In this document: positions 1-64,000 of the stretch, one piece after another
Layout of the letters: each line of letters begins with the position of its first letter
Numbering within the stretch: position 1 is the stretch's first letter
IMG/VR virus record: IMGVR_UViG_3300010163_003556
Span: 3,687-67,686 of that record
Length of the DNA: 64,000 bases
Source of the DNA: a virus
Taxonomy: Duplodnaviria > Caudoviricetes
Reading direction: 5' to 3' (one strand)
Program-made: the position numbers and the translations under genes
The notes under the pieces: model-generated
Database searches by the model: none
What the model was told of the DNA's origin: nothing
What the model saw: the letters and a program-made list of their open reading frames with translations, nothing else

Positions 1-1
1 G

Positions 2-679
2 GCGGCAGGCACCTTAAATGCAGAAAGTGCAAAAAACGCGGACGTTGACGAAGTTTCGGCACTTGGCGAAGCGGAAAAAACAAGCGCGCCCCTCGATGGA
101 ATATTCGAAGCGCGAAATAATATAGCTCCCGAAGCGGCTGCCGCGGGAGCGCAGGAAGAATTCAAGGAACAGAAAATAGGAAAGTTCAAAAACCCGCAGG
201 AATTGCTGCGCGCGTACGGCGAGCTTGAAAAAGAGTTTACCCGCCGTTCGCAGAGGCTTAAAGAACTTGAAAACGGCAAACATGCGCCTAAGACCGAAGA
301 GGATTGGAAAGAGTCGGTGGACAAGTTTTTCGAGGAAATCCCCGCCGCGAAGGCTTTCGCCAAAGATATGGCAAAGGTCATTATTTCCGACCCCGCGCTT
401 AAAGAGCAGGACGACTGCCTTAAAGTTGCGCTGCTTCGCGTGCTTACCGACAAGTTCCGAACCCCCGAACAGCTTATGAACGACGGAGAATTTTTGAAAA
501 ACTACGTTCTCGGCTCCGACGCCGTCCGCAATGCGGTCATTGCCGATTATATGGGCGAACTAAGGCGCGATATGCCCCCGAAAACGCTCCTGAACGGCGG
601 CCTGCAATGCGTGGCTCCGAAGGTCAAACCGAAAACCATAGAGGAAGCCGGTTTTCTGTTTTTGAAGAATAACAAATAG
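2..679 (+). CDS. Capsid assembly scaffolding protein (T7 gp9-like), 5'-truncated by window edge; flanking cluster
   Basis: Frame is open from base 2 to the stop at 677-679. Acidic Ala-rich N-terminus, then GKFKNPQELLRAYGELEKEFTRRSQ, matching the GKFK..EL..AY.ELEK motif of podoviral scaffolds. Lies directly upstream of the MCP. Confidence 0.7.
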   Translation, partial: AAGTLNAESAKNADVDEVSALGEAEKTSAPLDGIFEARNNIAPEAAAAGAQEEFKEQKIGKFKNPQELLRAYGELEKEFTRRSQRLKELENGKHAPKTEEDWKESVDKFFEEIPAAKAFAKDMAKVIISDPALKEQDDCLKVALLRVLTDKFRTPEQLMNDGEFLKNYVLGSDAVRNAVIADYMGELRRDMPPKTLLNGGLQCVAPKVKPKTIEEAGFLFLKNNK

Positions 680-690
680 AGGAGAATATT

Positions 691-1829
691 ATGGTAACAT
701 TATCAAACGCCGATAAGGCGTTAAAAACTTTTTATCTCGGCGTACTCGCCGATCAGCTCAACGTGGGCGTAAACCCCTTGCTCGCGAAAATCGGTCAGAC
801 CACAGCGGATGTATGGGGCAAGGAGGTCAAAAAGCTCGCTCCTTACGGAATTAACGGCGGTATCGGCTCGGGCGAGGAAACCGACAACCTGCCCAAGAGC
901 GGCTCGAATAACTACGCGCAGTTCACGCTTACGCTAAAAAACCTGTTCGGGAAAATCGAGCTTTCCGATAAGGCTATCCGCGCATCCCAGAACAGTGCGG
1001 GCGCGTTCGTCAACCTGCTCAATGCGGAAATGGAAGGATTGCTTAAAGCGAGCAAGTTCAACTTCGGACGTATGCTTTACGGCGACGGCTCCGGACTTCT
1101 TGCAACGACCGTCGACAACGCAGGCACCGCAAACAACGTGATAACGGTAGACAACGTCAAGTGCCTTATGGAAGGTATGACTATCGACGTCTATAACGGC
1201 GCGGGAGTTAAGCAGGATATTTCGGGCGCACGTATTGCCCTGATTGACAGAACGAATAAAAACGTCGTTCTCGACAGAGCGGCAGCTTCGAAGATCGGTG
1301 CTGGTTACTGCATCTACGTTCAGGGTTCGAAAAACAATGAAATTACGGGTCTTGAAGCAATTTTCGGCGGAAGCGAGAATATATACGGATTGTCGAGAAA
1401 GGACTACACCTTCCTCACGCCTTATACCAAGACGATCAACGACACCGTTACGATAAGCGCGATTCAGGACGCTATCGACGCTATCGAGGAAAACGCGGGC
1501 GGCACGATTGACTTTATCGTTGCATCCTACGGAGTCCGCAAGCAGTACGTCGACCACCTCGCGGGAACCCGCACGAACGTGGATTATCTCACGCTCGACG
1601 GCGGCTACAAGGCACTCAGCTATTCGGGCATTCCTTTCGTCGCAGACAGATTCGTCGGCGAGGGCGATATGTATCTGCTCAACAGCGGCGACTTCAAGCT
1701 TCATCAGCTCTGCGACTGGCGTTGGCTCGAGGGAGAGAGCGGAAGCGTTCTCCATCAGGTACCCGGCAAGGCTTGCTATTCGGCGACCCTCGTCAAGTAT
1801 GCGGATTTGCTCTGCGAGCGTCCGTATGG
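691..1829 (+). pseudogene. Major capsid protein (HK97 fold), N-terminal 379 codons, interrupted by the prophage (ORF runs on to 1905 in prophage DNA)
   Basis: RBS GAGGAG. Capsid-like sequence (GGIGSGEETDNLP, LKNLFGKIELSDKAIRAS, FVADRF, YSATLVKYADLLCERP). After ERPY the ORF turns into AT-rich, A-tract sequence (GREKSLTKKGQKMG). Confidence 0.8.
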
Positions 1830-1845
1830 ACGGGAAAAAAGTCTA
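1815..1845. other. Putative attL junction (core GG at 1828-1829, within CCGT-ATGG-ACGG)
   Basis: MCP-like coding sequence stops here. ATGG is shared with the right junction (TGCC-ATGG-GGCA, 60296-60307). A GG crossover restores the reading frame. Confidence 0.65.
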
Positions 1846-2212
1846 ACGAAAAAAGGGCAAAAAATGGGGGTTTTTACCCATAAAAAGGGCATTTTTCAAG
1901 CCTAAAAATTGAAGAATAGACATTTTGACCTTTCAAGGTCTGAACAGTAGACAAACATTTCCGACAATTCAAAAAAAAGTTGCATTTTTAGCATTGTACG
2001 GTTTGTCTATTTTTTGACGATAAATAGCAACGGAAAGACCCTTATAAAAGGGCAACAATTAACCACGAAAACAACGGCTGAAACGGCAAACAAAGCCGTT
2101 CCCGATAAAGATAAATCCACCCACTTTGCAAACGGTTCAAGCGAACGGAGAGTTCGTGCGGGGCAAATATTAGAACCGAATGCCGAGTGGGTGAATTTTT
2201 TTTGCATTTTAG

Positions 2213-2269
2213 AAAAGTCATACTTTTGCGACTTTTGTCCTTTACAAAGTGAACCAAATATGCTAAAAT
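2213..2269 (+). promoter_or_regulatory. SigA-type promoter of the WYL gene with upstream inverted repeats
   Basis: TTTACA (2241-2246), 17 bp spacer, TAAAAT (2264-2269) with extended TG. AAAAGTC-N10-GACTTTT (2213-2236) is a candidate autoregulatory operator. Confidence 0.55.
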
Positions 2270-2299
2270 AAAGGGACTCTAAAATGGAGGTCCATAGGG

Positions 2300-3313
2300 A
2301 TGAGTGCTGAAAGCGTTTCAAAAATCAAGTACCTAAAAATATGGGACATACTCCGACAGGAAACGGACGAAGAGCATCCGATGACAACCCCTGACCTTTT
2401 GGCAAGGTTGGAAGAGAGCGGAATCAAGTGCGACCGTAGAACGCTCTATCGCAACATAGAGGAACTAAACGAATGCGGTTACGAAGTGCTGACCAAGGTA
2501 GGAAAACCGAACGGTTACTATGTGGTAGACCGTAGCTTTGACATACCCGAAATTCATATCCTAATGGACGCTGTGCAAGCGGCTAGCTTTATCACCGAGA
2601 AGAAGACTAAATTGCTTGTAGACAAAATAGCAAGGCTAGCAGGCAACAAGGCAGCCGAGGTTCTCAAGCAGAATATAGTGGACTTTGATACGGTGAAGAG
2701 TACGAATGAGAATATCTACTATTCGGTGAACGAAATAGCCACGGCAATCAACGAGGGACTGAAAATCACCTTCCAATACTTTGACTACAATGCTCAAGGT
2801 AAAAAAGTTTATAGGATGCGGAAGAGCGTTCCAACGGAGCGGAAGACATACAAGGTGAGTCCGCTCTCAACTGTGTTCAGTAGCGACAAATACTACCTAA
2901 TTTGCTACGATGACTACTACGACAATTTGCAACATTACCGAGTGGACAGAATGGATTCGGTGACGATGGTAGAAGAGCCGATAACAAAAACCGAGAAGAC
3001 AAAGCAGCTCAAGGTGAAAGAACACAAACAGCAAGTCTTTTGGATGTTCACGGGCAAGACAGAGCAAGTATCGTTCGCCGCCGACAAATGCCTCATCGAT
3101 GTGATGCATGACACATTCGGCGGAAAGGTTAGGATAAATGAAGGGGCAAACGACACGATAACATTCACAGCCAACGTGCAAGTCAGTCCGACCTTTATCG
3201 CATGGTGCTGTGCCTTTGGAAAGCAGTTGCTAGTAACAGCGCCCCAGAACGTTATTGAGCAAGTGAGAAACTATATAAACGACTTAAGTGGAAGATATGG
3301 AGGGAACAACTAA
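2300..3313 (+). CDS. WYL-domain transcriptional regulator (wHTH-WYL-WCX; BrxR/PafC-like)
   Basis: N-terminal wHTH (CDRRTLYRNIEEL), WYL core (KYYLICYDD...HYRVDRM) and C-terminal WCX-like region (FIAWCCAFG). Confidence 0.85.
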   Translation: MSAESVSKIKYLKIWDILRQETDEEHPMTTPDLLARLEESGIKCDRRTLYRNIEELNECGYEVLTKVGKPNGYYVVDRSFDIPEIHILMDAVQAASFITEKKTKLLVDKIARLAGNKAAEVLKQNIVDFDTVKSTNENIYYSVNEIATAINEGLKITFQYFDYNAQGKKVYRMRKSVPTERKTYKVSPLSTVFSSDKYYLICYDDYYDNLQHYRVDRMDSVTMVEEPITKTEKTKQLKVKEHKQQVFWMFTGKTEQVSFAADKCLIDVMHDTFGGKVRINEGANDTITFTANVQVSPTFIAWCCAFGKQLLVTAPQNVIEQVRNYINDLSGRYGGNN

Positions 3314-3402
3314 CCCATTAATTTTACGGCTATTCGATGAGATAAGAAAGACAATATCGATAATAATTTTTAGTTTTTCGACTACGAATTCCATACCGAG
3401 TA

Positions 3403-3451
3403 AATATCACCGTGATATTCCGTTGATTTTTGGCTTATTTTGTGGTAAAAT
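3403..3451 (+). promoter_or_regulatory. Promoter of the methyltransferase operon with a perfect palindrome
   Basis: AATATCAC-C-GTGATATT (3403-3419) directly upstream of TTGATT (3423-3428), 17 bp spacer, TAAAAT (3446-3451). Confidence 0.55.
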
Positions 3452-3524
3452 ATTTTATGGCTTCTTTTGGCAAGAAGAAATGTCGATAGAGTAAGGTGTA
3501 AGTATATTTTTTTAAGAGGTAAAT

Positions 3525-4484
3525 ATGGCTCGAAAGAAACAGTCAGATTATTCAGTTATATCATTTTTTTGTGGCTGTGGAGGCTTTGACTTAGGTTTTC
3601 AGGGCGGATTTGAATATAATGGTACTGCATACGATAAGCTCCCTTTTAATGTTATAGCCGCCTATGATTTTGACCCGCTTTGTGTGCAAACTTATAATGA
3701 CAACATTCATGAAGTTGCAGAGCAGCTAGATTTAGGCACAGCGGATGTTTCGAAAATGCCATATGCCGATATATTGGCAGGGGGATTCCCTTGTCAGGAC
3801 TTTTCACTTTGTGGGCCACTTCTTGGTTTAGAGTCCGAACGTGGACGATTATATTTGGCAATGAAAAGGTATATGAATTTTCATAAGCCCAAAATGGTCA
3901 TTGGAGAGAATGTATACAATTTGCTAAATATGAAAAATGGAGAAGTCTTAAAGCGAATTTTGAGTGACTTCGAAGAAGAAGGATATAAATTTACTGTTTG
4001 GAAAATGCCATGCAAAAAATATGGTATTCCCCAGATGCGCATGAGAATAATTGTGGTTGGCATAAGAGAGGACATTTTCGAACGAAAAGGCTTTCCAATT
4101 CCGCCCGAAGAGAGTAGTGATATTAAAACCATTGAATGGGCAATCGGCGACCTTATTAATGTTACTGATGAATCTATACCAAACCAAAGTCAGTATTTTC
4201 GAGCAAACAAAACCCCCGGTAACGGAGTGCAGGGTGATGAAGTAAGCAAAAGAGATCAGCCTGCTTATACCGTAAGGGCAAACTCACGTTCACATATTCA
4301 ATTCCATTACGAGTTGCCTCGACGGTTAACAGTTCGTGAATGCGCTAGAATACAAACATTCCCAGACACATTTGTATTTAAGCATAGTCTCACACGCAAT
4401 ATGCGGCAAATTGGGAATGCAGTTCCCCCGCTTTTAGCCTACAAGGTAGGATGTTCTGTAAAGAATTACTTGGTTAAAAAATAA
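3525..4484 (+). CDS. DNA (cytosine-5)-methyltransferase
   Basis: Motifs I (FCGCGG), IV (GGFPCQDFS), VI (ENV), VIII (QMRMR), IX (RRLTVRECARIQTFPD) and X (QIGNAVPP). Confidence 0.95.
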   Translation: MARKKQSDYSVISFFCGCGGFDLGFQGGFEYNGTAYDKLPFNVIAAYDFDPLCVQTYNDNIHEVAEQLDLGTADVSKMPYADILAGGFPCQDFSLCGPLLGLESERGRLYLAMKRYMNFHKPKMVIGENVYNLLNMKNGEVLKRILSDFEEEGYKFTVWKMPCKKYGIPQMRMRIIVVGIREDIFERKGFPIPPEESSDIKTIEWAIGDLINVTDESIPNQSQYFRANKTPGNGVQGDEVSKRDQPAYTVRANSRSHIQFHYELPRRLTVRECARIQTFPDTFVFKHSLTRNMRQIGNAVPPLLAYKVGCSVKNYLVKK

Positions 4485-4501
4485 CCGAAGGAGTAGAAAT
4501 A

Positions 4502-6847
4502 ATGGCTGACTCGTTTGTTGATATCACGCCAACCCCAAGAACATTGAGAATGTTGGGCGAAATCCCGTTCTCACCTTGGCAATGCTTTGCCGAGTTAATT
4601 GACAATGCGGTCGACGCATTTCTCGCAGATGATATGGAGCATGAAGACCGCCGAATTCAAATTATTTGGTCTCCTGAAAGGGTTGGACTTAAAGAGCGGA
4701 CCATCGAGATTATTGACAATGCCTGCGGCATGACGCTTGAGCAGATGACAAACGCTGTCAAAGCAGGTTATTCGGGAAACGACCCAATTAATAATTTGGG
4801 TCTCTTTGGAATGGGATATAATATTGCTACAGCTCGCCTTGGAGATAAATCTACAATTTATACTACGAGAGCAGGTGACGATAAATGGGTTGGTGTAGAA
4901 ATCGACTTTACCCAATTAATATCACAAAAGACATTCAAAACTCCTGTTGTTTATCGGGACAAGGAAGATATATCCGAACATGGAACTAAAATCATTATAT
5001 CGAAGTTGAACAATGGTATCTATAACGATATTTCCACCAAGACAACCGCAATTCGAAAGCAACTTGAAAATGTGTATTCGGTGCTTCTTGAAAAGCATAA
5101 TATTGAAATATATGTCCAAGGGCGGAGGCTTGTACCAAAAAAATACTGTGTTTGGTCGCCTGAAAGATATGTAATGAGAGATGGGCAACGAGTATATGCG
5201 GTTCAAAAAATAGACAGGGTACTCGGCGAAACCTACTTTGATATGGAACGTAATAGATATTTATCGCCAGAGCAAGAAGACGAGATAGAAATAGCAGTAT
5301 CAAGAGGCGAAGCGATTCCCCCTACAATTGTAAAAAGACAAAAACGACTTAAGGGATGGGTAGGAATTCAACGGTTCTTTTCGACCAATGATTACGGCAT
5401 AGATTTTGTAAGGAATGGTAGAAAAATATTAATTGCTAATAAAGATGCATTTTATTTTGAAGACGGGGCAACAGGTAGTTCAACCATTCAGTACCCTGTA
5501 GAGTTAGGTTCGACAGTCGGCGGACGCATCGTTGGTGTTGTCGAGGTGGATTACCTACTGCCAACATACCAAAAAAATGACTTTGTTAGAACGGACCTTT
5601 CATGGATACAAACTATGGAAGCAATTAGAGGTCAAGGCCCAATATTACCAAATGCTAGGAAAGCATATGGATATGCAGACAAGAATGAATCCCCTGTAGG
5701 AATTCTTGCAACAGCTTATCGCCGTCCAGACAAAGGTAGCAAAAACCTTGTATTACCTAAAGATGTTGCGAAGGCATTTGCGGATAGATTTTATAAGGGA
5801 GATGCTGAATACATATCGGATGAAAAATGGTTTCAAGCCGTTCGAGAAGCTGACCGAGATGTGGGTACTTTCGGGGCAGGTGAGGCAGGCGATGTCGACG
5901 TTGGGGATGCGCCGTCTGATGATGTGAGCGCATATTTTGGAGAGGACGAAGTAACTGAGGTTGAATCTCAAACTACCCACGAAGACGAACCACAAAAAGG
6001 GACTCCGACCCAAACAGCATCATCCAGTTGTGACGAATTGTTGCGGGCATCGGAAGAAAATGCCATTCTATCTCGCCAGTATGCATATAACCCCTATCCA
6101 TTAACCGTTAGAGCGCACAAAATGAAAAGTGATATTATTCGCTATAATGGGAAAAGAGTCCCTGCGGCGTTCTTTTCGGATGGAATAGAGTGCGATTTTT
6201 TCTATGATCCGAGGCATGAATTGTTAGCGCAATTCCCTTCTTGCAACCCTGAAAGTCTATTGATGATTTATCTCGCCAATAAGTTTGCGGCAAGAGATAG
6301 TGTAGGCGACATAGTCTCTATATACAGCGCATTAACAGTCTCGGAGTTAAAAGAAATGCGCGTAGATAAGAGTTCACTCAATGAGCAAGCAACGTTGTTT
6401 TTCGATGAGTTTAGAGAAAGACTCGAACTCGCACTGTCCCACAAGTATAGGGAAGTCATAGCTTGTCTAAAAGAATCCGTTGGCGAAGAGGAAGCAACAA
6501 TTACTGCTCTTCTAACCGAGCCAGACTTATTATCGGCATATAATGAAGACTCAGCCGAGGCAATAGGAATCATACGGTATGTACCATTGAACACTTTAAT
6601 TAGACTTGTGGATCGATTCCCCGAAAGTGTTTTTGATGGAATTGTGTTTAAGGCCAAATTCAACACCTTGCCCAACACGGGCAACGCAGATTCAATGGAG
6701 CGTATTAAATCGGAAGCAAAAGAAAGAATAGTTTCCATGTTGAAAGATGCTCTTCTAGTACAGGGAGAAAAAAGCGCACGATTGTCAAAGAATGAAATGA
6801 CAAAGTGTGCGTGGAGTATTGCTACCCTTAAAGGGGAGTTGAAATAA
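4502..6847 (+). CDS. GHKL (MORC/MutL-like) ATPase with long uncharacterised C-terminal region
   Basis: ELIDNAVDA (N box), IIDNACGM (G1), GLFGMG (G2), GTKIII. S5-like region GWVGIQR/GIDFVRNGRKI, acidic linker and helical C-terminus. Confidence 0.8.
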   Translation: MADSFVDITPTPRTLRMLGEIPFSPWQCFAELIDNAVDAFLADDMEHEDRRIQIIWSPERVGLKERTIEIIDNACGMTLEQMTNAVKAGYSGNDPINNLGLFGMGYNIATARLGDKSTIYTTRAGDDKWVGVEIDFTQLISQKTFKTPVVYRDKEDISEHGTKIIISKLNNGIYNDISTKTTAIRKQLENVYSVLLEKHNIEIYVQGRRLVPKKYCVWSPERYVMRDGQRVYAVQKIDRVLGETYFDMERNRYLSPEQEDEIEIAVSRGEAIPPTIVKRQKRLKGWVGIQRFFSTNDYGIDFVRNGRKILIANKDAFYFEDGATGSSTIQYPVELGSTVGGRIVGVVEVDYLLPTYQKNDFVRTDLSWIQTMEAIRGQGPILPNARKAYGYADKNESPVGILATAYRRPDKGSKNLVLPKDVAKAFADRFYKGDAEYISDEKWFQAVREADRDVGTFGAGEAGDVDVGDAPSDDVSAYFGEDEVTEVESQTTHEDEPQKGTPTQTASSSCDELLRASEENAILSRQYAYNPYPLTVRAHKMKSDIIRYNGKRVPAAFFSDGIECDFFYDPRHELLAQFPSCNPESLLMIYLANKFAARDSVGDIVSIYSALTVSELKEMRVDKSSLNEQATLFFDEFRERLELALSHKYREVIACLKESVGEEEATITALLTEPDLLSAYNEDSAEAIGIIRYVPLNTLIRLVDRFPESVFDGIVFKAKFNTLPNTGNADSMERIKSEAKERIVSMLKDALLVQGEKSARLSKNEMTKCAWSIATLKGELK

Positions 6848-8505
6848 TGGCATCCTTTTTGACAGACAACATAATGAAGGGAACGGATTGGCGTGCGCTC
6901 GAAAGGGCGGTCGCTCGCCTTATGACGTTAGCTGGATGGGACAATGTCGAGGTTGTTGGAGAAACAGGCGATAAGGGTGCAGACATTATAGGAGTAAGAA
7001 AGCAGAACGGACATAAGCAGACATGGGTGGTGCAAGTCAAAGCAAAGACTATGGGTGAAATGGTCGGAGCAACAGCGGTACGTGAGGTTATGACAGCGAT
7101 GTCGGTTTATGGAGCTAATGTTGCAGCAGTAGCTACAAATGCAGACTTCACGGAAAGTGCAAGAAAACGGCAGAAAGAATTACAATCACAAGGGTTTGAC
7201 CTAAAATTGTGGAATGGAAGATTTTTGTTGGATTTACTAGCGCAACTCCCTGAATATAAGGCGTTAAGACCTTTGCGCCCATATCAAGAAGATATTGTCA
7301 ACAAGGCAAAAAGTATTTACGAAAACCATGGAAAACGTGCTTTATACATAGTTGCCACAGGGTTGGGAAAGACAGTCATTGCATCTAGAATCACCAACTA
7401 TTTGTGGTCAATGGGGAACAGACGGTTTTTAGTATTGTGCCATGCTCAAGATTTAGCCCTGCAATTGGAACAAAGTTTCTGGAAGGAAATTTCAAAGGAT
7501 GTTCCGACAAGGACGTTTTTTGGTGGACGTCCGCCACTTATATATGAAGGTATAAATTTTGGTCTGTATCAAACATTTACTAATTATTTAAGCGGCATAG
7601 AGGAAAAAGATTTCGATGTTGTCATAGTGGACGAAGCTCATCACGCAATGGCAAATGGTTTTACCACTTGCCTTTCGTCATTGAATCCAAATTTTCTCAT
7701 AGGCATGACTGCTACTCCATGGCGAGGTGATGGGAAATCAATGAGCAATATTTTCGGAGAGCCAATCGCTACGGTATCCTTGGTTGATGGGATGCGTGAT
7801 AAGTACCTAGCTGACATTGATTATAGGCTTTTTTGCGACAACATAGATTGGGATAGTATTCATGAGATGTCAAGCAAAAAACACAGTATTCGGGACTTGA
7901 ATAAGAGGTTATTTTTACCACAGCGCGATGAAGCTATTATTTCACAGATACAAAAAGCTTGCAAAGAGATCCCCAACCCAAGAATTATAGTTTTTACTCC
8001 GTCCATAGAACACGGAGAAAAATTTGCTCGTTTATTGACTATATCAGGAATCTCATGTGCCTCGCTATCAGGAATGGATAAAATCACTCGGAGAAGAAAC
8101 CTTTTAGATTTTTCCACAGGGAAAATTCAAGCAGTTACAGCAGTTGACATTCTGAACGAGGGTATAGATGTCCCAGATGTTAATATATTGGTATTCCTAC
8201 GAGCAACACATTCTAGGCGGATTTTCGTTCAGCAGTTGGGACGCGGATTGAGAATAAGTCCAACGAAAAAGAGTGTTGTGGTTCTTGACTTCGTTTCGGA
8301 TATTCGGCGTATAGCTGAAGTCATCCAAATGGATAGAGAAGCTAGAGAAAAATGTATGGATTCCGAAACGATGTATCTGCGAAACGGGCTTGTCACATTT
8401 AGCGACCAAAAAGTGGGTAGTTTCATGATGGAGTGGCTTGCAGATATTGCAGATGTAGCAAATTGTGATGAAAACGAAAAACTTTCATTCCCGGAGGATT
8501 ATTGA
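6847..8505 (+). CDS. Mrr-like PD-(D/E)XK nuclease fused to SF2 (ResIII-type) helicase
   Basis: N-terminal ERAVARL...GDKGADI...VQVK...TNADFT (Mrr_cat pattern). Helicase motifs ATGLGKT, DEAHH, TATPWRGD, NEGIDVP and QQLGRGLR. Translationally coupled to the ATPase gene. Confidence 0.85.
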   Translation: MASFLTDNIMKGTDWRALERAVARLMTLAGWDNVEVVGETGDKGADIIGVRKQNGHKQTWVVQVKAKTMGEMVGATAVREVMTAMSVYGANVAAVATNADFTESARKRQKELQSQGFDLKLWNGRFLLDLLAQLPEYKALRPLRPYQEDIVNKAKSIYENHGKRALYIVATGLGKTVIASRITNYLWSMGNRRFLVLCHAQDLALQLEQSFWKEISKDVPTRTFFGGRPPLIYEGINFGLYQTFTNYLSGIEEKDFDVVIVDEAHHAMANGFTTCLSSLNPNFLIGMTATPWRGDGKSMSNIFGEPIATVSLVDGMRDKYLADIDYRLFCDNIDWDSIHEMSSKKHSIRDLNKRLFLPQRDEAIISQIQKACKEIPNPRIIVFTPSIEHGEKFARLLTISGISCASLSGMDKITRRRNLLDFSTGKIQAVTAVDILNEGIDVPDVNILVFLRATHSRRIFVQQLGRGLRISPTKKSVVVLDFVSDIRRIAEVIQMDREAREKCMDSETMYLRNGLVTFSDQKVGSFMMEWLADIADVANCDENEKLSFPEDY

Positions 8506-9077: not shown

Positions 9078-9092
9078 ATATAACGATACAAT

Positions 9093-9120
9093 AAAAGCGA
9101 CCATAACGGTCGCTTTTTTT
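9093..9120. terminator. Bidirectional intrinsic terminator
   Basis: AAAAGCGACC-ATAAC-GGTCGCTTTTTTT between convergent genes. Confidence 0.8.
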
Positions 9121-10932: not shown

Positions 10933-10944
10933 AAATAACCTCCT

Positions 10945-10993
10945 ATGGTTCTACCCATAGAACCATTATACAACAAGTCTAGAAAAAAGACAA
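10945..10993 (-). promoter_or_regulatory. Promoter TTGTCT-17-TATAAT with a palindromic operator at the start site
   Basis: -35 at 10993-10988, -10 at 10970-10965. ATGGTTCTA-CCCA-TAGAACCAT (10945-10966) lies between the -10 box and the RBS. Confidence 0.65.
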
Positions 10994-11041
10994 ATAAAAA
11001 AGCCGATAGGAAACTCCCCATCGGCTTTCCCATTTCCAACC

Positions 11042-14483: not shown

Positions 14484-14484
14484 T

Positions 14485-14865: not shown

Positions 14866-14875
14866 GGGGCGATTT

Positions 14876-18020: not shown

Positions 18021-18026
18021 TCATAT

Positions 18027-50438: not shown

Positions 50439-50439
50439 G

Positions 50440-50796: not shown

Positions 50797-50799
50797 CCT

Positions 50800-52581: not shown

Positions 52582-52583
52582 GT

Positions 52584-55594: not shown

Positions 55595-55608
55595 CGGAGG
55601 GGAACGAT

Positions 55609-56184: not shown

Positions 56185-56193
56185 GAGGACAAA

Positions 56194-56490
56194 ATGGTAG
56201 CAATCATAATAAGCATTGTTTCAAGCATCATCAGCGGAATGGTGCTTTTCTTTTTACAAAGGTTTTTCAAAAAGAAAGCCAAAAGGGACGAGGAAAGGGA
56301 CGAGGCAAAGAGAAAGGAAAATCTGCTGATACTTCGTTCCATCGATGCGGTTGGCAAACTGACCTATGCGGACGCAATAGCAATACGCGATGGAAAGACC
56401 AATGGTGAAATGAAAGCGGCAATCGAAGCCTATAAAAAGGCGGACGAAGAGATGTACGAGTTTTTACTCGAACAAACGACATTGAACTAG
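56194..56490 (+). CDS. Membrane-anchored lysis-module protein (holin-associated)
   Basis: N-terminal TM helix followed by a charged coiled segment; precedes the holin. Confidence 0.55.
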   Translation: MVAIIISIVSSIISGMVLFFLQRFFKKKAKRDEERDEAKRKENLLILRSIDAVGKLTYADAIAIRDGKTNGEMKAAIEAYKKADEEMYEFLLEQTTLN

Positions 56491-56502
56491 GAGGGATAAT
56501 CA

Positions 56503-56814
56503 ATGGAATATTTGGAGCTGATAAGCGTACCCGCTATCGCAACAATCGTTTATTGGGTGATTAACATCATCAAGTATGCGGTCAAAGAAAACGAAACATT
56601 CAAGCGGTTTATTCCGCTCATCTCGGCGGCTCTCGGAGCCGTGCTTGGGGTTGTGGCATTCTATGCCGTGCCGAGTATCATCCCGGCGGCAAATGTTTGT
56701 GTGGCAATCCTAATCGGCGGAGCAAGCGGTCTGACGGCGACAGGAACGAATCAAATTATAAAGCAGCTCGGCAAAAAGGGCGATGACGGAGAGAGCAAAG
56801 ATGGAAAAAACTAA
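56503..56814 (+). CDS. Phage holin
   Basis: Three hydrophobic segments, IPLISAALGAVLG, GGASGLTATG and charged C-terminus. Confidence 0.75.
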   Translation: MEYLELISVPAIATIVYWVINIIKYAVKENETFKRFIPLISAALGAVLGVVAFYAVPSIIPAANVCVAILIGGASGLTATGTNQIIKQLGKKGDDGESKDGKN

Positions 56815-56932
56815 CGAAACGGTTCAGTATCAACTGTCCAAGGCAATCTTGGATATGCTCCTCAAAAATCGCCTTATAACGGTCAAGGAATACGCTGAAA
56901 TCGACAAGAAGAATCGGGCAACTTTTGCCTGA
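56801..56932 (+). CDS. Small SHOCT-like protein preceding the recombinases (43 aa, not in ORF track)
   Basis: MEKTNETVQYQLSKAILDMLLKNRLITVKEYAEIDKKNRATFA; ML..LI...EY..ID pattern typical upstream of tandem serine recombinases. Confidence 0.55.
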   Translation: MEKTNETVQYQLSKAILDMLLKNRLITVKEYAEIDKKNRATFA

Positions 56933-56962
56933 TTTTTCTTGCCTTTTTTTAACCCTTTTCAG

Positions 56963-56991
56963 TAGACTTTCTGTCCTAAACACGCTATTGT
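56963..56991 (+). promoter_or_regulatory. Putative promoter of the recombinase pair
   Basis: TAGACT-17-TATTGT upstream of RBS AGGAGG. Confidence 0.45.
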
Positions 56992-57021
56992 TGTGGTACA
57001 AAATCAAAAGGAGGTAAACCG

Positions 57022-58581
57022 ATGGAAAGCAAGATGCGAGTATGTTCGTATTGCCGAGTAAGCACACGGCAAGAAAAACAGGAAATGAGCCTAACCTCAC
57101 AAATACAGCACTTCAACGAAATAATCGATGCGAATCCGAATTATATCAATATCGGCTCGTTTATTGACCAAGGCGTAAGTGCAAAGACACAAAGCAAGCG
57201 GTTAGAGTTTATGCGCATGATTACCGAGTGCCGAAACCGTAATATCGACATAATCTACACAAAGACGGTCAGTAGGTTTGGGCGTAACTCAAGGGAAATG
57301 CTACGCACGATTGAAGAGCTGACAAGAATCGGAGTTCGGGTCATTTTCGAGATTGAGCAAATCGATACCCTACGGGACAAATCGGTACTTGATCGAGTGC
57401 TTAAATCTTACATGGCAGAGGAAGAACTCACCAAGGACAGCGAGGCTACAAGGTTCGGTATCCTACGGCAAGTAGAGCAAGGCAACATCTGCATAGCAAA
57501 CAGAACCCCGTTGATAGGTTACAAGTACAACAAATCAATGGGGTTGGAAATCAATCCGCCGATGGCAAAAATCGTCAGAGAGATATTCGAGCGCTATACG
57601 AGCGGAGAGAGGTCTTGTGATATTATCCGTTGGCTAAACGGACTAGGGGTGAAAACCTCGGCGGGAAAGGAATGGAATTATTGCAGCCTTTCCTATGTGC
57701 TAAAACAAGAAAAGTACACAGGCGATGCCTATTTTCAAAAGAGTTTTTCGGAATACGGTAGGGTTTATCGAAACCGAGGCGAAAAAGCCATGTATGTCGT
57801 GGAAAGAGTATGTCCGCCGATAATCACGCATGAGATGTTCAACAAAGCGAGAGAACGAATGGCAGCTCACACACTCTACGAACGCGGACACGATTATGTT
57901 CCGCAATACGATTGCTTTCGTGGAAAAATGGTTTGCGGTCTGTGCGGTTCGAAATACAACAAACAAGGTCTTGGGCATAAGACACTCAAAAACGGTGGTA
58001 AGGAAAAGGAAACCTACCAATGTCAACTGAATAAAACGAAAGGCGTCCACGCGTGTAGGAATCGGATACAAGATAAACTTACACTTCAGGACGCCTTTAT
58101 TTATGCCTACAACAAAATGAAGACCGCACTAATGGGCAAAGAGAAAGCGGTATTCGAGGACACCGAAACGGCGGAAATCAACATGAGGTTGCAAACCTTG
58201 CTAGCCAAGGAAAAGATATACCTAGCGATGGAAGCCCAAGGAACGATGACCTCCGAACTCGCCCATCAGCACAACCTTATAATTAACGAAGTACTTGCCC
58301 TGGAAAAGCGCAAACGGACAATCGCTAAACACAATATCGAAATGGTAACCCGAAACAGTCAAATCAACATCTGCGATGAGTTGCTCCGAAAGTACGATAG
58401 AATGGAAACCTTCGATGAAGAGGTCTTCAATCAAATGGTAGAGCAAATAATCGTGATGGGCAAAAACCGACTGCTCTATAAGTTCAAAAACGGCTACACA
58501 GCCGATATCGAGGTAATCGATTATTATTTAGAAAGAGATGAAATAGGAGAGGTACAAATCTATGCTAGCACCAAATGTTAG
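57022..58581 (+). CDS. Large serine recombinase (integrase) A
   Basis: RVCSYCRVST, SRFGRN, recombinase domain and zinc ribbon CGLCG...CQ...C. Confidence 0.92.
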   Translation: MESKMRVCSYCRVSTRQEKQEMSLTSQIQHFNEIIDANPNYINIGSFIDQGVSAKTQSKRLEFMRMITECRNRNIDIIYTKTVSRFGRNSREMLRTIEELTRIGVRVIFEIEQIDTLRDKSVLDRVLKSYMAEEELTKDSEATRFGILRQVEQGNICIANRTPLIGYKYNKSMGLEINPPMAKIVREIFERYTSGERSCDIIRWLNGLGVKTSAGKEWNYCSLSYVLKQEKYTGDAYFQKSFSEYGRVYRNRGEKAMYVVERVCPPIITHEMFNKARERMAAHTLYERGHDYVPQYDCFRGKMVCGLCGSKYNKQGLGHKTLKNGGKEKETYQCQLNKTKGVHACRNRIQDKLTLQDAFIYAYNKMKTALMGKEKAVFEDTETAEINMRLQTLLAKEKIYLAMEAQGTMTSELAHQHNLIINEVLALEKRKRTIAKHNIEMVTRNSQINICDELLRKYDRMETFDEEVFNQMVEQIIVMGKNRLLYKFKNGYTADIEVIDYYLERDEIGEVQIYASTKC

Positions 58582-60169
58582 GGTTATAGAACCCACCAAG
58601 AAGCTCGTCAACGGAATCGACATTCTCAAGCAGAATATGCCTAAAAGGGTATGCGCATACTGCCGAGTATCGACCGACAGCGAGGAACAGCAATCGAGTT
58701 TTAAGTCACAGCAAATCTTCTACAAAGACTACATCCAAAAGCACGAAGGGTGGATTTTTGCAGGGATTTATGCGGACGAGGGACTGTCAGGAACAAGCAT
58801 GCGAAAGCGAAAGGAATTCAACCGAATGATAGCTGACGCAATGGACGGAAAGATTGAAATTATTATCGTGAAGTCGGTATCAAGATTCGCACGAAACGTG
58901 GTGGACATCTTAAACATAGTCGAAAAGCTCACATTAAAAGGAATTCCGATTATATTTGAAAACGACCATCTAAACAGTATGGATGACCAAGCAGGGACAA
59001 GGATGCGGCTCCTTATGAGTGCTGCCGTAGCCGAGGACTTCTCGCAGAACTTGAGCGAATCGGTAAAGTGGGGCAAAATAAGGCGTATAGAGCAAGAAAA
59101 ATATCCTTGCGTAAAAACCTACGGCTACCGAATAAAAGACCATAACTACGAAATATACGAGCCAGAGGCGCAAATCGTAAGGCTTATTTATAAGACCTAC
59201 TTGGCGGGGCAAAGTTACGGACAAATCTGCAAGATGCTGATGGACAGAGGGGTGATAAGCCCTGGCGGTGTTACCTTATGGAAGACAAGCACGGTGTCCT
59301 ACATACTTGAAAACGAAAAGTACAAAGGCGACCTGCACTTGCAAAAGCAGACTTACAGCGACCTAAAATATAGGAAGAGAATCAAGAATACCACAGGCAA
59401 GCAATACTATATCGAAGACCATCACATGCCGATAGTCAGCAAAAGCGATTGGAATAGAGTCCAAAAGGAAAGGGAAATTCGAACGAACCAACGCGGATAC
59501 AGTCCAACGGGTAAAGCAGGGTATTCGTCCAAGTACGCCTTTTCAAACAAACTCTACTGTGTAGCCTGCGGTAGTAAATTCCGCCGACACAAATACGAAA
59601 CGGTTCACAAAACGGTCTATACTTGGGTGTGCATCAATCACAAACGATATAAAAACTGCAAGCAAGACGCGATAAAAGAAGAAGACCTCGAAAGAACTTT
59701 CCTTGGCATCATAAAGGACATCGTAGCGGATAAGGACGGCTTTATAAACAAGGTCATAGCGAACATCGAAGAGGTGGTAAAGAACCGCCAGAGCGAAACC
59801 TCGACCGAAGACATCGATGCTAAAATCCTATCAATCCAAAACGAAATGATAGGGTTGGTAAGGAACATGACGACATCGAACACGGCAGAGATTTCCGAAA
59901 GGACGCAGGAAATGCTAGCCGAAATCGAAAGGCTTAAACAAATCAAAGATACGACCATAGCCGAGGGATTATCGCTCGAAAGGGACTTGTGCCGAATGGA
60001 CAACTTGCGAGAGTTACTCAATACCACGGAGTTGTTCGAGAAGTTCAATGCAGACATATTCCGCCGAGTAGTGGACAAGGTTCTCATAGACGGGAAGACG
60101 GCAACCTTCGTATTATGCGATGCGGTAAGGATTACCAGACCGATACTGCAAGGGACGGACAGCGAATGA
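58562..60169 (+). CDS. Large serine recombinase (integrase) B
   Basis: RVCAYCRVST, YADEGLSGT, SRFARN, CVACG...WVC zinc ribbon and coiled coil; adjacent to attR. Confidence 0.92.
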   Translation: MLAPNVRVIEPTKKLVNGIDILKQNMPKRVCAYCRVSTDSEEQQSSFKSQQIFYKDYIQKHEGWIFAGIYADEGLSGTSMRKRKEFNRMIADAMDGKIEIIIVKSVSRFARNVVDILNIVEKLTLKGIPIIFENDHLNSMDDQAGTRMRLLMSAAVAEDFSQNLSESVKWGKIRRIEQEKYPCVKTYGYRIKDHNYEIYEPEAQIVRLIYKTYLAGQSYGQICKMLMDRGVISPGGVTLWKTSTVSYILENEKYKGDLHLQKQTYSDLKYRKRIKNTTGKQYYIEDHHMPIVSKSDWNRVQKEREIRTNQRGYSPTGKAGYSSKYAFSNKLYCVACGSKFRRHKYETVHKTVYTWVCINHKRYKNCKQDAIKEEDLERTFLGIIKDIVADKDGFINKVIANIEEVVKNRQSETSTEDIDAKILSIQNEMIGLVRNMTTSNTAEISERTQEMLAEIERLKQIKDTTIAEGLSLERDLCRMDNLRELLNTTELFEKFNADIFRRVVDKVLIDGKTATFVLCDAVRITRPILQGTDSE

Positions 60170-60192
60170 ATAATATAATTAATAAGGAAAAA

Positions 60193-60224
60193 GGACGGTT
60201 CGAGCAACATCGAACCGCCTATTT
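60193..60224 (+). terminator. Intrinsic terminator after the recombinases
   Basis: GGTTCGA-GCAACA-TCGAACC stem followed by TATTTT. Confidence 0.55.
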
Positions 60225-60289
60225 TATTCCCACAATATTAGACAAACACCAGGGCGGAATTGGGAGAATATCGAATAGACAAACCGCCT

Positions 60290-60315
60290 CGGCAATGCCA
60301 TGGGGCAGGCGAAGC
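60290..60315. other. Putative attR junction (core GG at 60303-60304)
   Basis: Switch to flank-type coding sequence in frame GQAKLT; shares ATGG with attL. Confidence 0.65.
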
Positions 60316-60545
60316 TCACGTTCTCGCGCGAAAGAGCGAGAAGCTTCTTTGCGGTCGGCTTCGACTCCGCAGGCGGAAGCGCGGTCGAGCCTCAGATAGT
60401 CGTTCCCGGCGGACACGTCGTTCAGCCCGCGAATCCGACTAAGGCTTCGTTTACGTTCGACGGCTGGTACCTCGACGGCAAGAAATTCGATTTCGCAGCC
60501 GATACCGTCGACCGCGACGTTACGCTGACTGCTTCCTGGCTCTGA
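60303..60545 (+). pseudogene. C-terminal remainder of the interrupted MCP, including an InlB B-repeat (Flg_new/PF09479-like) domain
   Basis: GQAKLT continues ...CERPY; then VGFDSAGGSAVEPQIV.PGG.V.QP.NPTKASFTFDGWYLDGKKFDF...V..DVTLTASW, a textbook B-repeat. No good RBS before the ATG at 60300. Confidence 0.75.
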
Positions 60546-60547: not shown

Positions 60548-60859
60548 ATGAACGGGCTGGAACTCATTGAAAACGACCTTTTCGACATTGCTCTAAGACT
60601 GAAAGAAATAGATCCGGAATATAAGCTTTTCAGGAACAGAGCGGTCGGAAGGTTCGAAATTTACGCAAAAGGGGCGCTGCAAATTGCAGTGCCCTATAAG
60701 CGGCTCGACGCCCGAACGCTTAAACTCGCGCGGGAAACCCGGCTCGAATACGCCGAACGGCTCGTCGCCGAGATGGATAAGAAAAATGCCGAACTCGATA
60801 GGGCAAGGGCGGCGGAATCAAGAGACAAAATAATGGAGGAGGTCGAAAGGGTTTTATGA
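60548..60859 (+). CDS. Hypothetical protein of the flanking virion cluster
   Basis: 103 aa ORF 2 nt after the MCP stop; flank-type codon usage. Confidence 0.7.
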   Translation: MNGLELIENDLFDIALRLKEIDPEYKLFRNRAVGRFEIYAKGALQIAVPYKRLDARTLKLARETRLEYAERLVAEMDKKNAELDRARAAESRDKIMEEVERVL

Positions 60860-61404
60860 TTATAAAGGACGTACTCGGCGAATGTCTCGTCAAAATGGGA
60901 ATGGAAAATTTTATTTCCAAAACCGAATATTCCGAAAAGGAAAACGGAATTATTACCGACCTGATTGCTGCGCTCAATATCGTATACAGGGAAATAGTCT
61001 GCGAATATCTTCCGCTTGTTTTCTCGGAAGAGGTTGAGCTTAAAAACGGCGAGGTTTTCGCATCGGAGCTAGCGAAGCGGATTCTCTATCCCATAAGGCT
61101 TTACAGCGGCGACAACGTTTTGAATTTCAAGGTTTATCCAGACAAAATCGCTGCGGGAAAAAGCGGAGTTTTTACCCTCGAATACGCTTACGTTCCGGAC
61201 GGAGAACTCACGATAGACGACAGCATAGACGATATGCGGCTTACCTCTGCCGCGCTTTCCGACGGCACGCTTGCGGAGTACTATTTCAAAAACAAGGTGT
61301 TCGAACTTGCGCGCGATTTCGACGCTTCGTTCAGAAACCGAATGGGTATTCTGCGCTATAAGGGCAGAAGGATGAGAATGAAGCAAAGGGGGTGGCAGGA
61401 TTGA
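60856..61404 (+). CDS. Putative head-to-tail adaptor (podoviral gp4-like)
   Basis: Position after the MCP; LIAALNIVYREI, TLEYAYVP and LAEYYF patterns; ATGA coupling. Confidence 0.5.
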   Translation: MIIKDVLGECLVKMGMENFISKTEYSEKENGIITDLIAALNIVYREIVCEYLPLVFSEEVELKNGEVFASELAKRILYPIRLYSGDNVLNFKVYPDKIAAGKSGVFTLEYAYVPDGELTIDDSIDDMRLTSAALSDGTLAEYYFKNKVFELARDFDASFRNRMGILRYKGRRMRMKQRGWQD

Positions 61405-62840
61405 ACTACTCTGAAAGCAGGACAAGACGCGGCGCGGCGGTCAGGCGTTCGCAGATTAAGGTCGGCTTCAAGGGAATGGTGAGTAGCCTTGACGAAAACC
61501 TATGCGATATGGCATACGCAAAGGACGCCCGCGGTTTTGCATTCGAAAAGGGCGTTCTTACCGCAAATTTCGGGGTTGAAGACGCGTCGGGCTTTTATTT
61601 TTCGCCTATCTATCTCCGCCACGCATACCCCGCACTCCCCGAGGGAAAGAAACTTAAAGACGTTTTCCTTTACAGGCACACGAACAGCAAGGGCAGGTGT
61701 GACGACAGAATCGTCGCGCAGCTTACCAGCGGGGAGTTTATGTACACCGCCGTGTTTGACAACGATACCTGGCACGCGCTTACCGGAATCAGAACGACCG
61801 CCGAAGTCAGTGCGGTCAATTATAATTATCAGGGAAACGAGGTGCTTCTGCTCGCAACTCCTTTGAACAATCTGTGGCTTATCAACGACGCTACGATGTA
61901 CAATTGCTCGGCGTCCCCTCAGTTTTCTTCGATGACGGTCCACAACGAGCGAGTTTACGGGAGCATAAACGGCATAGAAAAACAGGTATGGTTTTCCGAT
62001 AACTTCAATCCCCTGAATTGGACGGTAAGTTCGACTGAAGCCGGCTTTATTAATTTTTCCGACGATTGCGGAGAGATTCTTAAAGTCGTGTCCTTTCTGA
62101 ACTATTTGTACGTGTTCAGAGAGTACGGGATATTCAGAATTACCGCCTTCGGAGATCAGAGCGAGTTTCTCGTCAAAAAGATTTTCACGGATACCGGGCG
62201 CATTATAAAAAAGACCATAGAGGTTTGCGGGGACAGGATTATTTTTTATGCGGAGAACGGTCTGTTCAGCTTTGACGGCTACGATGTAACCCCCATATTC
62301 AAGGAACTGGGCGACGTATATAATAACGGCATTATGTGCGGAGCGTATCTGAACGGATGTTACTACCTTGCTTGCTGCGAGTCGGATACAACTACCAAAA
62401 CCGACACGCTCTATAAGTGCGATTTTCTCGACAAAACGCTGTCGAAGATAAGCGGACTGAACGTTATATCGCTTAGAGCAATAAACGTAAGCAACGGATC
62501 GCAGATGCTGTGCGTGTTAAAGAACGCGACCAAGATAGGGGAAATCGGCGGCAGCGGGGCGGTGTTCGATAAATGTACGGAAAAGAAGTATGTCAGCCCG
62601 TCGTCGGATCTTTCTATCCCGTCCCTGAAAATAATTAGGGATTTCTCGCTGATTACGCACTATCCGCTTACCGTCAGGGTTATACTTGACGGAACCGCAT
62701 ATGAATATTCCCTTAAAGGCAGCACGGAACTTCAAAAGATTCCCGTAGAAAAAAGCGGATATATCGTCGGGTTCGAACTTGAAACAACGGAGCCGAAGGC
62801 ATATGTAACGCCGCTTAAAGTGAGCGTCGAAAGAATGTAA
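61392..62840 (+). CDS. Putative tail nozzle / stabilisation protein (P22 gp10 / T7 gp12-like beta-propeller)
   Basis: Beta-rich 482 aa with VHNERVYG, VWFSDNFNPLNW, LYVFREYGIFRI and IFYAENGLFSFDG blade-like repeats. Confidence 0.55.
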   Translation: MAGLNYSESRTRRGAAVRRSQIKVGFKGMVSSLDENLCDMAYAKDARGFAFEKGVLTANFGVEDASGFYFSPIYLRHAYPALPEGKKLKDVFLYRHTNSKGRCDDRIVAQLTSGEFMYTAVFDNDTWHALTGIRTTAEVSAVNYNYQGNEVLLLATPLNNLWLINDATMYNCSASPQFSSMTVHNERVYGSINGIEKQVWFSDNFNPLNWTVSSTEAGFINFSDDCGEILKVVSFLNYLYVFREYGIFRITAFGDQSEFLVKKIFTDTGRIIKKTIEVCGDRIIFYAENGLFSFDGYDVTPIFKELGDVYNNGIMCGAYLNGCYYLACCESDTTTKTDTLYKCDFLDKTLSKISGLNVISLRAINVSNGSQMLCVLKNATKIGEIGGSGAVFDKCTEKKYVSPSSDLSIPSLKIIRDFSLITHYPLTVRVILDGTAYEYSLKGSTELQKIPVEKSGYIVGFELETTEPKAYVTPLKVSVERM

Positions 62841-62854
62841 AAATCGGAGGAATT

Positions 62855-62962
62855 ATGAAATTAAACGAAATAGCAGCAATAGTCGAGGAGCTTGTCGTCA
62901 AGGTAAAGACCTTGGAGATCAAGCTCGCCGCATTGACGGCGAACGCCGCGCCGCAGAATTAA
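62855..62962 (+). CDS. 35 aa coiled-coil microprotein (not in ORF track)
   Basis: RBS GGAGG; MKLNEIAAIVEELVVKVKTLEIKLAALTANAAPQN; stop overlaps the next RBS. Confidence 0.55.
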   Translation: MKLNEIAAIVEELVVKVKTLEIKLAALTANAAPQN

Positions 62963-62971
62963 GGAGAGAAT

Positions 62972-64000
62972 ATGGCAAAAAGTTTTTGGGACGAGTTCAA
63001 GGATATGTTCAAGTCCGACTCGGAAAAAGCCGCGGAGAGGCAGGAGTCTATAAACGACGCGCTCGAAAAGGAGAAGTCGATTACGGAACAGCTTGCCGCG
63101 CTGGAAAAGGAATACAACGACAGCCTTCCTAAGGAGGAGGAAATAGACGTTGAAAAGCTGTTCCCTTCCGACTCGGGACTCAAAGAGATCGAGTACAGTG
63201 CCGCCACGGACGATGATATCGAGAGACTTGCAAGAGCGGAGAGCGAATACGGCAAAAAGACGGATACGGACGCGCTTAACAGCAGTTACGCCAACAGAAA
63301 AGACGCGCTCGAAAATGCCAAAGCAAGTGCGGATAAGTCGCTTGACGCAAGCTATAAGAAGCTCGAACAGCTTTACAACGAGCTGCGAGAAAAGACGGAA
63401 AACGACACTATCAAAAGAGGAATTGCAAGGAGCAGTATAGCGTCTACCCGAATAGACGACCTGAACCGCGCGCAGATGAAAGGGGCAAGCGAGCTTGAAA
63501 AATCCTATAACAGCAATATTTCGGATCTCGATACGCAAATAGAACGGCTCGAAGCCGACAGGGAAAATGCGCTTAACGATCTTGACCTCAAATACGCAGT
63601 TCAGCTTGACGAGAGAATAGGCGAGCTTAAAAAAGAAAGGGACGAGACGGTGAAAAAGTACGAGACGTATAACGCAAACATCCGCGAAAAAGAAAAGAAG
63701 TTTCAGAAGCAGAGAGAAGAGGATATTGCGGACTATCTCGCAAAAAAGGAAAAGGAAAAGCAGGACGCCCTTCAAAAGCAGGAGGAATACGAAAAGAAGT
63801 ACGGCTACTCGGGAGCAAAGCAGGATAACTATGCAAAGCGTTACGATATAGCTTTTGATTTTTATTCGTCGCTTTCTCCTGAAATAGCCGCGGACGCACT
63901 GCAAGCTTCTCCGAGCATGAAATATTATCTCGGGCAGTATTACGACAAACTGCTCTCGGCATTAAAAAACAGCACTAAAGAAACTACGCTTATATTCTGA
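62972..64000 (+). CDS. Charged coiled-coil protein (possible internal virion / ejection protein)
   Basis: 342 aa, E/K-rich helical, RGIARSSIA motif; complete, with stop at 63998-64000. Confidence 0.65.
   Translation: MAKSFWDEFKDMFKSDSEKAAERQESINDALEKEKSITEQLAALEKEYNDSLPKEEEIDVEKLFPSDSGLKEIEYSAATDDDIERLARAESEYGKKTDTDALNSSYANRKDALENAKASADKSLDASYKKLEQLYNELREKTENDTIKRGIARSSIASTRIDDLNRAQMKGASELEKSYNSNISDLDTQIERLEADRENALNDLDLKYAVQLDERIGELKKERDETVKKYETYNANIREKEKKFQKQREEDIADYLAKKEKEKQDALQKQEEYEKKYGYSGAKQDNYAKRYDIAFDFYSSLSPEIAADALQASPSMKYYLGQYYDKLLSALKNSTKETTLIF

Follow-up and report, generated by a model that had tools for sequence, protein, structure and literature searches.

The stretch of DNA described here (the window; 64,000 nucleotides, analyzed over its whole length) represents bases 3687-67686 of the IMG/VR virus record IMGVR_UViG_3300010163_003556, a single sequence of 67,686 bp, and is hallmarked by two sets of phage genes placed one inside the other. 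The window flanks belong to one podovirus-type cassette of ca. 9.2 kb and ten genes, and the center is a complete temperate siphovirus prophage of ca. 58.5 kb (1825..60297, + strand; recognized by PHROGs, Pfam and PADLOC scans and by codon statistics) that lies inside the cassette's gene for the major capsid protein (MCP). Taken as a whole, the locus is likely to be a vertically inherited cassette resembling gene transfer agents (GTAs), the capsid gene of which has been cut by a siphophage with serine recombinases. The virus record joins these two unrelated entities, a seemingly host-fixed cassette and a true prophage. It opens with the ATG of the cassette's TerL gene and closes with the stop codon of its DUF7934 gene, so that it resembles a provirus call trimmed to gene boundaries; no tRNA genes were found in the record.

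Cassette genes are arranged in the order TerL-p91-portal-scaffold-MCP-p103-p182-p482-p35-DUF7934, which is strict in all 80 loci that we examined as the best matches (60-84% identity) among the MCP relatives in GTDB-representative species genomes. The first three genes occupy record positions 1-3632, upstream of the window, and precede the scaffold gene: TerL (479 aa; Terminase_6N; phrog_2 at 1e-27), the putative TerS-like protein p91 (91 aa; a weak small-terminase match to phrog_309 at 1e-5) and a portal protein of the P22/SU10 type (631 aa; P22_portal at 2e-21, SU10_portal, PF16510 and PF23899). The window itself begins within the gene of the scaffolding protein (2..679, +), which in full encodes 250 aa from a start 73 nt upstream of the window and keeps its slot between portal and MCP in 75 loci; it has no Pfam or PHROG match, so its role is assigned from its position. 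The 5' part of the MCP gene follows with its native codons 1-378 (691..1824, +), encoding the HK97-fold body of an SU10_MCP-like protein (phrog_14242 at 4e-53, with SU10_MCP also the lead given by the ESM Atlas) that is 84% identical to intact MCPs of 459 aa. Because the prophage lies inside this gene, the 81-aa open reading frame (ORF) on its other side (60300..60545, +) is the detached C-terminus of the MCP, comprising the conserved GQAKLTF strand and a Flg_new (PF09479) decoration domain. This ORF aligns in the same frame with the C-terminus of the intact MCP, with which it is contiguous in intact loci; the Pfam match to Flg_new was found on the intact MCP of locus L019, and the MCPs of close relatives have ca. 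459 aa and end in this domain.

Downstream of the capsid gene, p103 (60548..60859, +; 103 aa) holds a conserved position in related loci and has no assigned role, with no match in PDB, Pfam or PHROGs. For other genes of the cassette, AlphaFold2 models were built on alignments of relatives and used for structural searches with Foldseek. The model of p182 (60856..61404, +; 182 aa; pLDDT 89) resembles the adaptors of SU10, GP4, Pa223, N4 and T7 (gp11) at a TM-score of 0.6-0.68, suggesting a head-to-tail adaptor, and that of p482 (61392..62840, +; 482 aa; pLDDT 88; phrog_3287) resembles the nozzle or tail hub of Pa223, VP1, GP4, SU10, P22 (gp10) and Sf6 (best E 4.5e-19, TM-score 0.77), suggesting a beta-propeller tail nozzle or hub. 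Profile searches against PDB sequences added a weak match of p482 to the SU10 nozzle and gave nothing useful for p91, p103 or DUF7934. The coiled-coil peptide p35 (62855..62962, +; 35 aa) carries the motif MNINEIV.TLEELVV.V..LE.KL, and 58 of 64 related loci have an ORF of 28-50 aa with this motif at the matching position; p35 is evidently a real gene. The final gene of the cassette encodes a coiled-coil protein of the DUF7934 family (62972..64000, +; 342 aa; PF25588 at 1.8e-98) for which no structural relative was found and the ESM Atlas gave no function, though its place after the nozzle suggests that it may be a needle or plug or an ejection protein. In portal, MCP (as a lead), adaptor and nozzle folds as well as in gene order, the cassette is similar to podoviruses of the SU10/P22 type (PDB 7z47, 9jg6 and 8eap), but it is far smaller than the gene sets of these virions and lacks ejection proteins, tailspikes, lysis genes and genes for genome replication.

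An earlier note on this DNA, made from the window's letters, had described the scaffold, MCP, 103-aa protein, adaptor, nozzle, 35-aa peptide and coiled-coil protein as tightly coupled, and all of these genes are indeed present. Its remark that the codon style of the outer genes differs from that of the insert proved right as well, since the outer genes use GCG, CGC and CTT roughly twice as often (36 versus 21, 14.5 versus 7 and 30 versus 14 per 1000 codons, with a GC content at third codon positions (GC3) of 0.62 versus 0.53). The note had also pointed upstream for terminase and portal genes, and both are encoded in the 3.7 kb ahead of the window, as a TerL and a P22-like portal. Its description of the cluster as flanking the prophage holds insofar as cassette genes stand at both window ends, but the prophage sits inside the MCP gene and not between genes.

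The prophage interrupts the MCP gene between Pro378 and Met379, within the sequence ...YADLLCERP|MGQAKLTF..., and the 5' ORF continues beyond the break to position 1905 via 26 phage-encoded codons (YGREKSLTKK...). At the left junction (attL, 1815..1836) we read GAGCGTC[CG]TATGGACGGG, with the two-base core in brackets, and compared it with about 70 intact attB sites, which read GAGCGTC[CN]ATGGGNCAGG, and with the attL of loci L005, L075, L076, L095 and L164. The right junction (attR, 60288..60310) reads GGCAATG[CC]ATGGGGCAGG, in agreement with a related attR in L093. From these alignments, the crossover dinucleotide would be 1823-1824, bases 2-3 of the Pro378 codon; no other core agrees with all junctions while preserving the frame. 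Joining the left side of attL to the right side of attR then restores ...CERP|MGQAKLTF... in frame, with a predicted attB that contains GAGCGTCCNATGGGGCAGG and a predicted attP that contains GGCAATGCCTATGGACGGG. Alternative cores within ATGG or GG were rejected because they put the frame off by one base or require a Tyr codon that is seen in no intact locus. A search of IMG/VR and metagenome contigs for the free-phage attP form, using a 27-nt left-arm pattern, returned integrated copies only, leaving the crossover core inferred rather than seen.

Next to the right junction, ca. 130 bp from attR, the prophage carries a pair of large serine recombinases (57022..60169, +; 519 and 535 aa; phrog_95 at 1e-91 and 3.5e-116) that we presume to be its integrase(s), and orthologous recombinase pairs adjoin split TerL or MCP genes in L048, L085, L087 and L093. 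In this reading, a temperate siphophage used its serine recombinase(s) to enter the capsid gene at one set dinucleotide of the Pro378 codon. The insertion separates the body of the capsid protein from its final strand and Flg_new domain and puts 58 kb between head genes and neck and tail genes; precise excision would restore the capsid gene.

The same Pro|Met boundary is occupied in six cases, namely in the window, in L005, L075 and L076, in an IMG/VR contig (L095) and in a metagenome contig (L164). Insertions at this site begin with TATGG... and encode the tail YG[RL].KSL.KKGQK.... The host MCPs concerned are, where measured, only 53-82% identical to that of the window, whereas the phage WYL gene is 77-90% identical where compared (L075, L076 and L095), and this contrast between diverged hosts and similar phages marks the integrations as independent. 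Related phages with the recombinase pair split TerL near residue 288 (L048:4755 and L085:6628), and further split points in the MCP gene lie near residue 343 (L095:9422) and near residue 21 (L087:10001). These findings bear out the earlier note's idea that the cassette serves as a dedicated integration target, with six independent insertions at one MCP codon boundary and more sites in TerL and MCP. Among the species loci examined, around 5% carry an insertion (4/80: L005, L048, L075 and L076). In L095, two different elements lie 45 codons apart in one MCP gene. L075 has a decayed phage copy in its MCP gene (L075:11200-14636) that keeps the WYL, phosphatase and fiber genes and a recombinase fragment, and the capsid gene of this genome looks permanently broken.

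Use of one in-ORF site in diverged hosts, a serine recombinase beside the att site and junctions that rebuild the ORF are hallmarks of gene-interrupting prophages. Elements with serine integrases that interrupt host genes and restore them on excision include SPbeta in spsM, skin in sigK and A118/phi10403S in comK. The insertion in the window shares with them a large serine recombinase at its end, the precise in-ORF insertion and junctions that rebuild the ORF in frame. Unlike these elements, it targets a structural gene of a phage-derived machine and not a cellular regulator, carries a pair of recombinases plus a third internal one and has related phages that use several sites in the cassette, and its excision is predicted. 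New here are the complete siphovirus prophage of 58.5 kb with a serine-recombinase pair inside an MCP gene at Pro378|Met379, the five other insertions at the same site in diverged hosts and the related phages that strike TerL and other sites in the MCP gene.

The cassette itself is widespread. The GTDB-representative collection contains relatives of its MCP in 329 species genomes, and in an order-wide sample of 401 species genomes, evenly drawn and centered on the complete genome of L031 (many of the others being incomplete metagenome-assembled genomes, MAGs), 194 have a cassette match of 47-100% identity, nearly always in one copy. Five genomes of 1.5-1.7 Mb have one cassette copy each. Only 11 IMG/VR contigs had an MCP match, and those inspected were cassette-plus-prophage junctions. 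A search of sequencing runs listed no RNA run and only two DNA runs, with 0.04-0.05 of sampled words. In a survey of about 50 related loci that had 5-10 kb of flanking sequence, the neighbors were host genes, in one group YitT, DUF1538 and P-II-like genes upstream and an M20 peptidase or rRNA methylase gene downstream, in another DHFR, thymidylate synthase (ThyA), GH2 and phosphoesterase genes upstream and an ABC transporter downstream. The flanks revealed neither genes for an integrase, a repressor or replication nor att sites, an AlpA-type regulator or a primase/replicase.

Whatever the wider host context, nearly all loci have a gene for a membrane protein of ca. 330 aa divergent from TerL (L019:4387-5376, - strand), with a signal peptide, one transmembrane helix and a tail rich in Arg, Asp and Tyr; it may belong to the system, e.g., for release, immunity or as a receptor. 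Most intact loci among L002-L081 also share the motif GTGACATAA(T/A)TTTTTG ca. 40-70 bp upstream of TerL (a region outside the record), and GTGACATAA may serve the cassette as a promoter or as the target of a regulator. A LexA box (GAAC-N4-GTT) was found in none of 64 regions upstream of TerL.

This setting bears on whether the cassette could be a satellite of the phage-inducible chromosomal island (PICI) type that supplies its own heads and needs a helper phage, a part that the inserted siphophage could play. The cassette is indeed small, consists mainly of head and packaging genes and is physically linked to a prophage in the window as well as in several further loci. Yet around 75 of the 80 loci have no adjacent prophage, and where there is one, it breaks the capsid gene and is not a mere neighbor. 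The ca. 50 loci surveyed are devoid of an integrase, an AlpA-type regulator, a primase/replicase and att sites, and the cassette, which encodes an adaptor and a nozzle itself, is inherited vertically across the order (see below), so that we regard a PICI-type satellite as highly improbable.

Selection and descent point to a resident of the host chromosome. Pairwise dN/dS values (NG86, pairs with dS of 0.05-1.5) are 0.09-0.30 across all cassette genes, with 0.10 for DUF7934, compared to 0.13-0.19 for flanking host genes. Distances of TerL, portal and MCP combined track those of linked host genes (r 0.83-0.91, Mantel p<=0.0005), and portal distances track those of the unlinked RpoB (r 0.79, p<=0.0002) in 27 genomes spanning the order, from which G003 and G268 (wrong RpoB ORFs) and G001 (split portal) had been left out. 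FastTree trees of portal and RpoB for these genomes have 17 of 24 splits in common (label shuffles averaged 0.2 and never exceeded 3), and 14 of the 15 well-supported portal splits are present in the RpoB tree. Tree congruence and distance correlations together form a pattern of long vertical descent that is unlike that of a circulating prophage.

An ordinary or decaying podoviral prophage remnant, with the nesting due to chance insertion of one prophage into another, would explain why the record is filed as a virus and why provirus callers include the cassette, and a few of its genes are frameshifted or truncated (TerL in L014; portal and p482 in L031). Against this stand the same gene set in hundreds of species, one copy per genome and free of integrase, replication and immunity genes, the dN/dS of 0.09-0.30, the tree congruent with RpoB and an insertion point that recurs in diverged hosts, and we find such a remnant hardly credible. 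As far as sequence reaches, the earlier note's proposal of a host-maintained capsid machine in place of an ordinary prophage is supported by neighbors, spread, dN/dS and trees: the surveyed flanks have no integrase or replication genes and their neighbors are host genes, the distribution is broad and single-copy and neither patchy nor horizontal, purifying selection is comparable to that on flanking host genes and the portal tree agrees with that of an unlinked gene. The outer genes are therefore very probably a domesticated particle cassette maintained by the host.

Among host-maintained particles, GTAs are the obvious comparison. RcGTA of Alphaproteobacteria is siphovirus-like, comprises ca. 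15 kb plus extra loci and is regulated by CtrA and GafA. The cassette is similar in being a vertically inherited cluster of head, packaging and tail genes under purifying selection with no replication or integration functions, and its putative TerS would likewise lack an obvious DNA-binding domain, but it is of podovirus type and unrelated to RcGTA in sequence. To our knowledge, few GTAs are known, and that of Faecalibacterium prausnitzii (FpGTA) is the only gut example described. FpGTA is encoded by a podovirus-like operon of 10 ORFs and ca. 10 kb, with fiber and lysis genes in a second locus, and forms particles of 40 nm that contain ca. 8.5-9 kb of host DNA (Nat Commun 2026;17:2046, PMC12946183). 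Its operon FpGTA I lies at CP030777:2536737-2546346, with RCH50849.1 as the MCP and RCH50851.1 as the portal. The same study reports GTA-like packaging of fragments of ca. 4-6 kb in Christensenellaceae MAGs without identifying the locus (PMC12946183); MAGs with such packaging include QANA01 sp019420265 and HGM11616 sp900761075.

The cassette resembles the FpGTA operon in its ca. ten ORFs and ca. 10 kb (here 9.2 kb, with adaptor and nozzle folds), in its terminase, portal, scaffold, MCP and short-tail proteins, in being podovirus-like with no replication or integration genes and in its near-ubiquity in a host group of gut Clostridia. It differs in host order, in starting with TerL followed by the TerS-like gene where FpGTA has TerS upstream, in the Flg_new C-terminal domain of its MCP, in serving as a phage integration site and in that no second locus with fiber, holin and endolysin genes was found for it. 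A BhlA holin gene follows the cassette only in a minority clade (one of five genomes).

Considering this gene content, the cassette would be an ancient, chromosome-fixed and phage-derived system with a motor of TerL and a TerS-like protein, a portal, a scaffold, an HK97-fold capsid, an adaptor, a nozzle and two coiled-coil tail-tip proteins. Such a set should suffice for a small short-tailed particle and could not replicate, integrate or regulate itself. Christensenellales-type gut Clostridia would inherit it vertically under purifying selection, and these two features make host-controlled particles that package cellular DNA, like those of FpGTA and other GTAs, the most likely product. Head, packaging and tail genes that reside in the chromosome with no modules for replication, integration or immunity in the flanks of the loci surveyed, combined with vertical inheritance and purifying selection, are among the features that define a GTA. 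Others are host-controlled expression with release through lysis and the packing of quasi-random host DNA in pieces too short for the whole gene set, for which the 4-6 kb fragments of Christensenellaceae MAGs (PMC12946183) are indirect support. A GTA-like DNA-packaging particle system is in our view the probable identity of the cassette.

Domesticated particles could also serve ends other than gene transfer, such as PBSX-like killing or lysis, release of DNA, or a role as decoy or anti-phage capsid. The evidence of conservation would be the same, no receptor-binding fiber or lysis genes were found nearby, and the disruption of the cassette by several phages at precise sites would be sensible if it harms phages; for FpGTA, a PBSX-like function was left open by its authors (PMC12946183). 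Such purposes seem unlikely to us nonetheless, since the intact TerL, portal, adaptor and nozzle point to packaging and to ejection via a tail channel, podoviral particles are not equipped with a contractile apparatus for killing, and for this bacterial group GTA-like packaging of host DNA is on record (PMC12946183).

Several points weigh against a GTA-like cassette cut by a siphophage as we propose it. The cassette is known from its genes alone, whereas FpGTA particles have been seen, and its likeness to FpGTA is one of architecture and lifestyle; we infer particle production, packaging of random DNA and transfer, as well as what the insertion does to the machine and that it is reversible. 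The assignment of p91 as TerS leans on the single weak PHROG match, and lysis genes, a receptor-binding fiber and a regulator were not found beside the cassette in this clade. The outer flanks of this cassette are absent from the record, and its chromosomal context is read from relatives that are 84% identical. At the junctions, the core dinucleotide differs between attL (CG) and attR (CC), which could reflect either mismatched cores at integration or a later silent base change. Finally, some submitter labels of MAGs (Bacteroidaceae, Phascolarctobacterium) conflict with a single order and are probably binning or labeling noise; the implausible label Anaeroplasmataceae also occurs on MAG records with the cassette.

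The inserted prophage has the gene content of a complete temperate siphovirus. Its WYL regulator gene (2300-3313) heads a defense-like island of low GC3 (3525-9077; 0.39) that encodes a C5 cytosine methyltransferase, a 781-aa MORC-like GHKL ATPase, a 191-aa unknown protein and a 552-aa protein in which an Mrr_cat nuclease is fused to a ResIII/SNF2 helicase. Phage relatives in L075 and L076 have different cargo between their WYL and phosphatase genes, and the comparison with L075 and L076 gave no clean boundaries for a nested island between these genes. A helix-turn-helix repressor of the Cro/CI type (11042-11365, - strand) is followed by the third large serine recombinase (11547-13457; 636 aa), of which only the first ca. 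360 aa match the family. This gene overlaps a 200-aa ORF that resembles part of a recombinase (27% over 157 aa), so the region 11547-14052 may represent either a nested element or a recombinase that has been split or duplicated. Replication genes extend over 18750-28274, and the prophage also encodes a LexA/UmuD-like protein, a Y-family polymerase, helicases and a primase. Ahead of its terminase lie genes for a PAPS-reductase-like/phrog_1569 fusion, an amidoligase and a gamma-glutamyl cyclotransferase (32500-37040) that look like a DNA- or nucleotide-modification module. The structural genes comprise TerL (37111), the portal (42048) followed by a protease, the MCP (43950) with connectors and the tail genes from the major tail protein (46645) to 56184, including the tape measure (47748-50438) and fibers, with a holin gene at 56503.

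How the lysogen would fare with its altered capsid protein is suggested by other clades, in which natural short MCPs stop right after GQAK(L/I)TF; by this analogy, the lysogen MCP of 378 aa plus a 26-aa look-alike tail may still assemble, which we offer as speculation. A wider idea, possible though we are more inclined to doubt it, is that a phage lineage aims its serine integrases at the structural genes of a host GTA-like machine, hitting at least four exact positions in MCP and TerL. Particles that are lethal to the host would then be switched off or remodeled in the lysogen and regained on excision, with the 26-aa tail (YGREKSL...) mimicking the MGQAKLTF end and possibly keeping the short capsid protein working. 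If true, this would amount to a conflict, or a regulatory switch, with a phage on one side and a domesticated phage on the other.

For viral databases, the record illustrates that provirus callers can fuse such cassettes with true prophages. Beyond this, the cassette is a concrete candidate for the genes behind the GTA-like packaging in Christensenellaceae that were left unnamed (PMC12946183), and it is present in about half of the sampled species of the order, including heritable gut bacteria that are associated with health. The recurrent and precise insertions suggest that a domesticated phage machine may offer phages an attachment site, or that phages may be disarming it.

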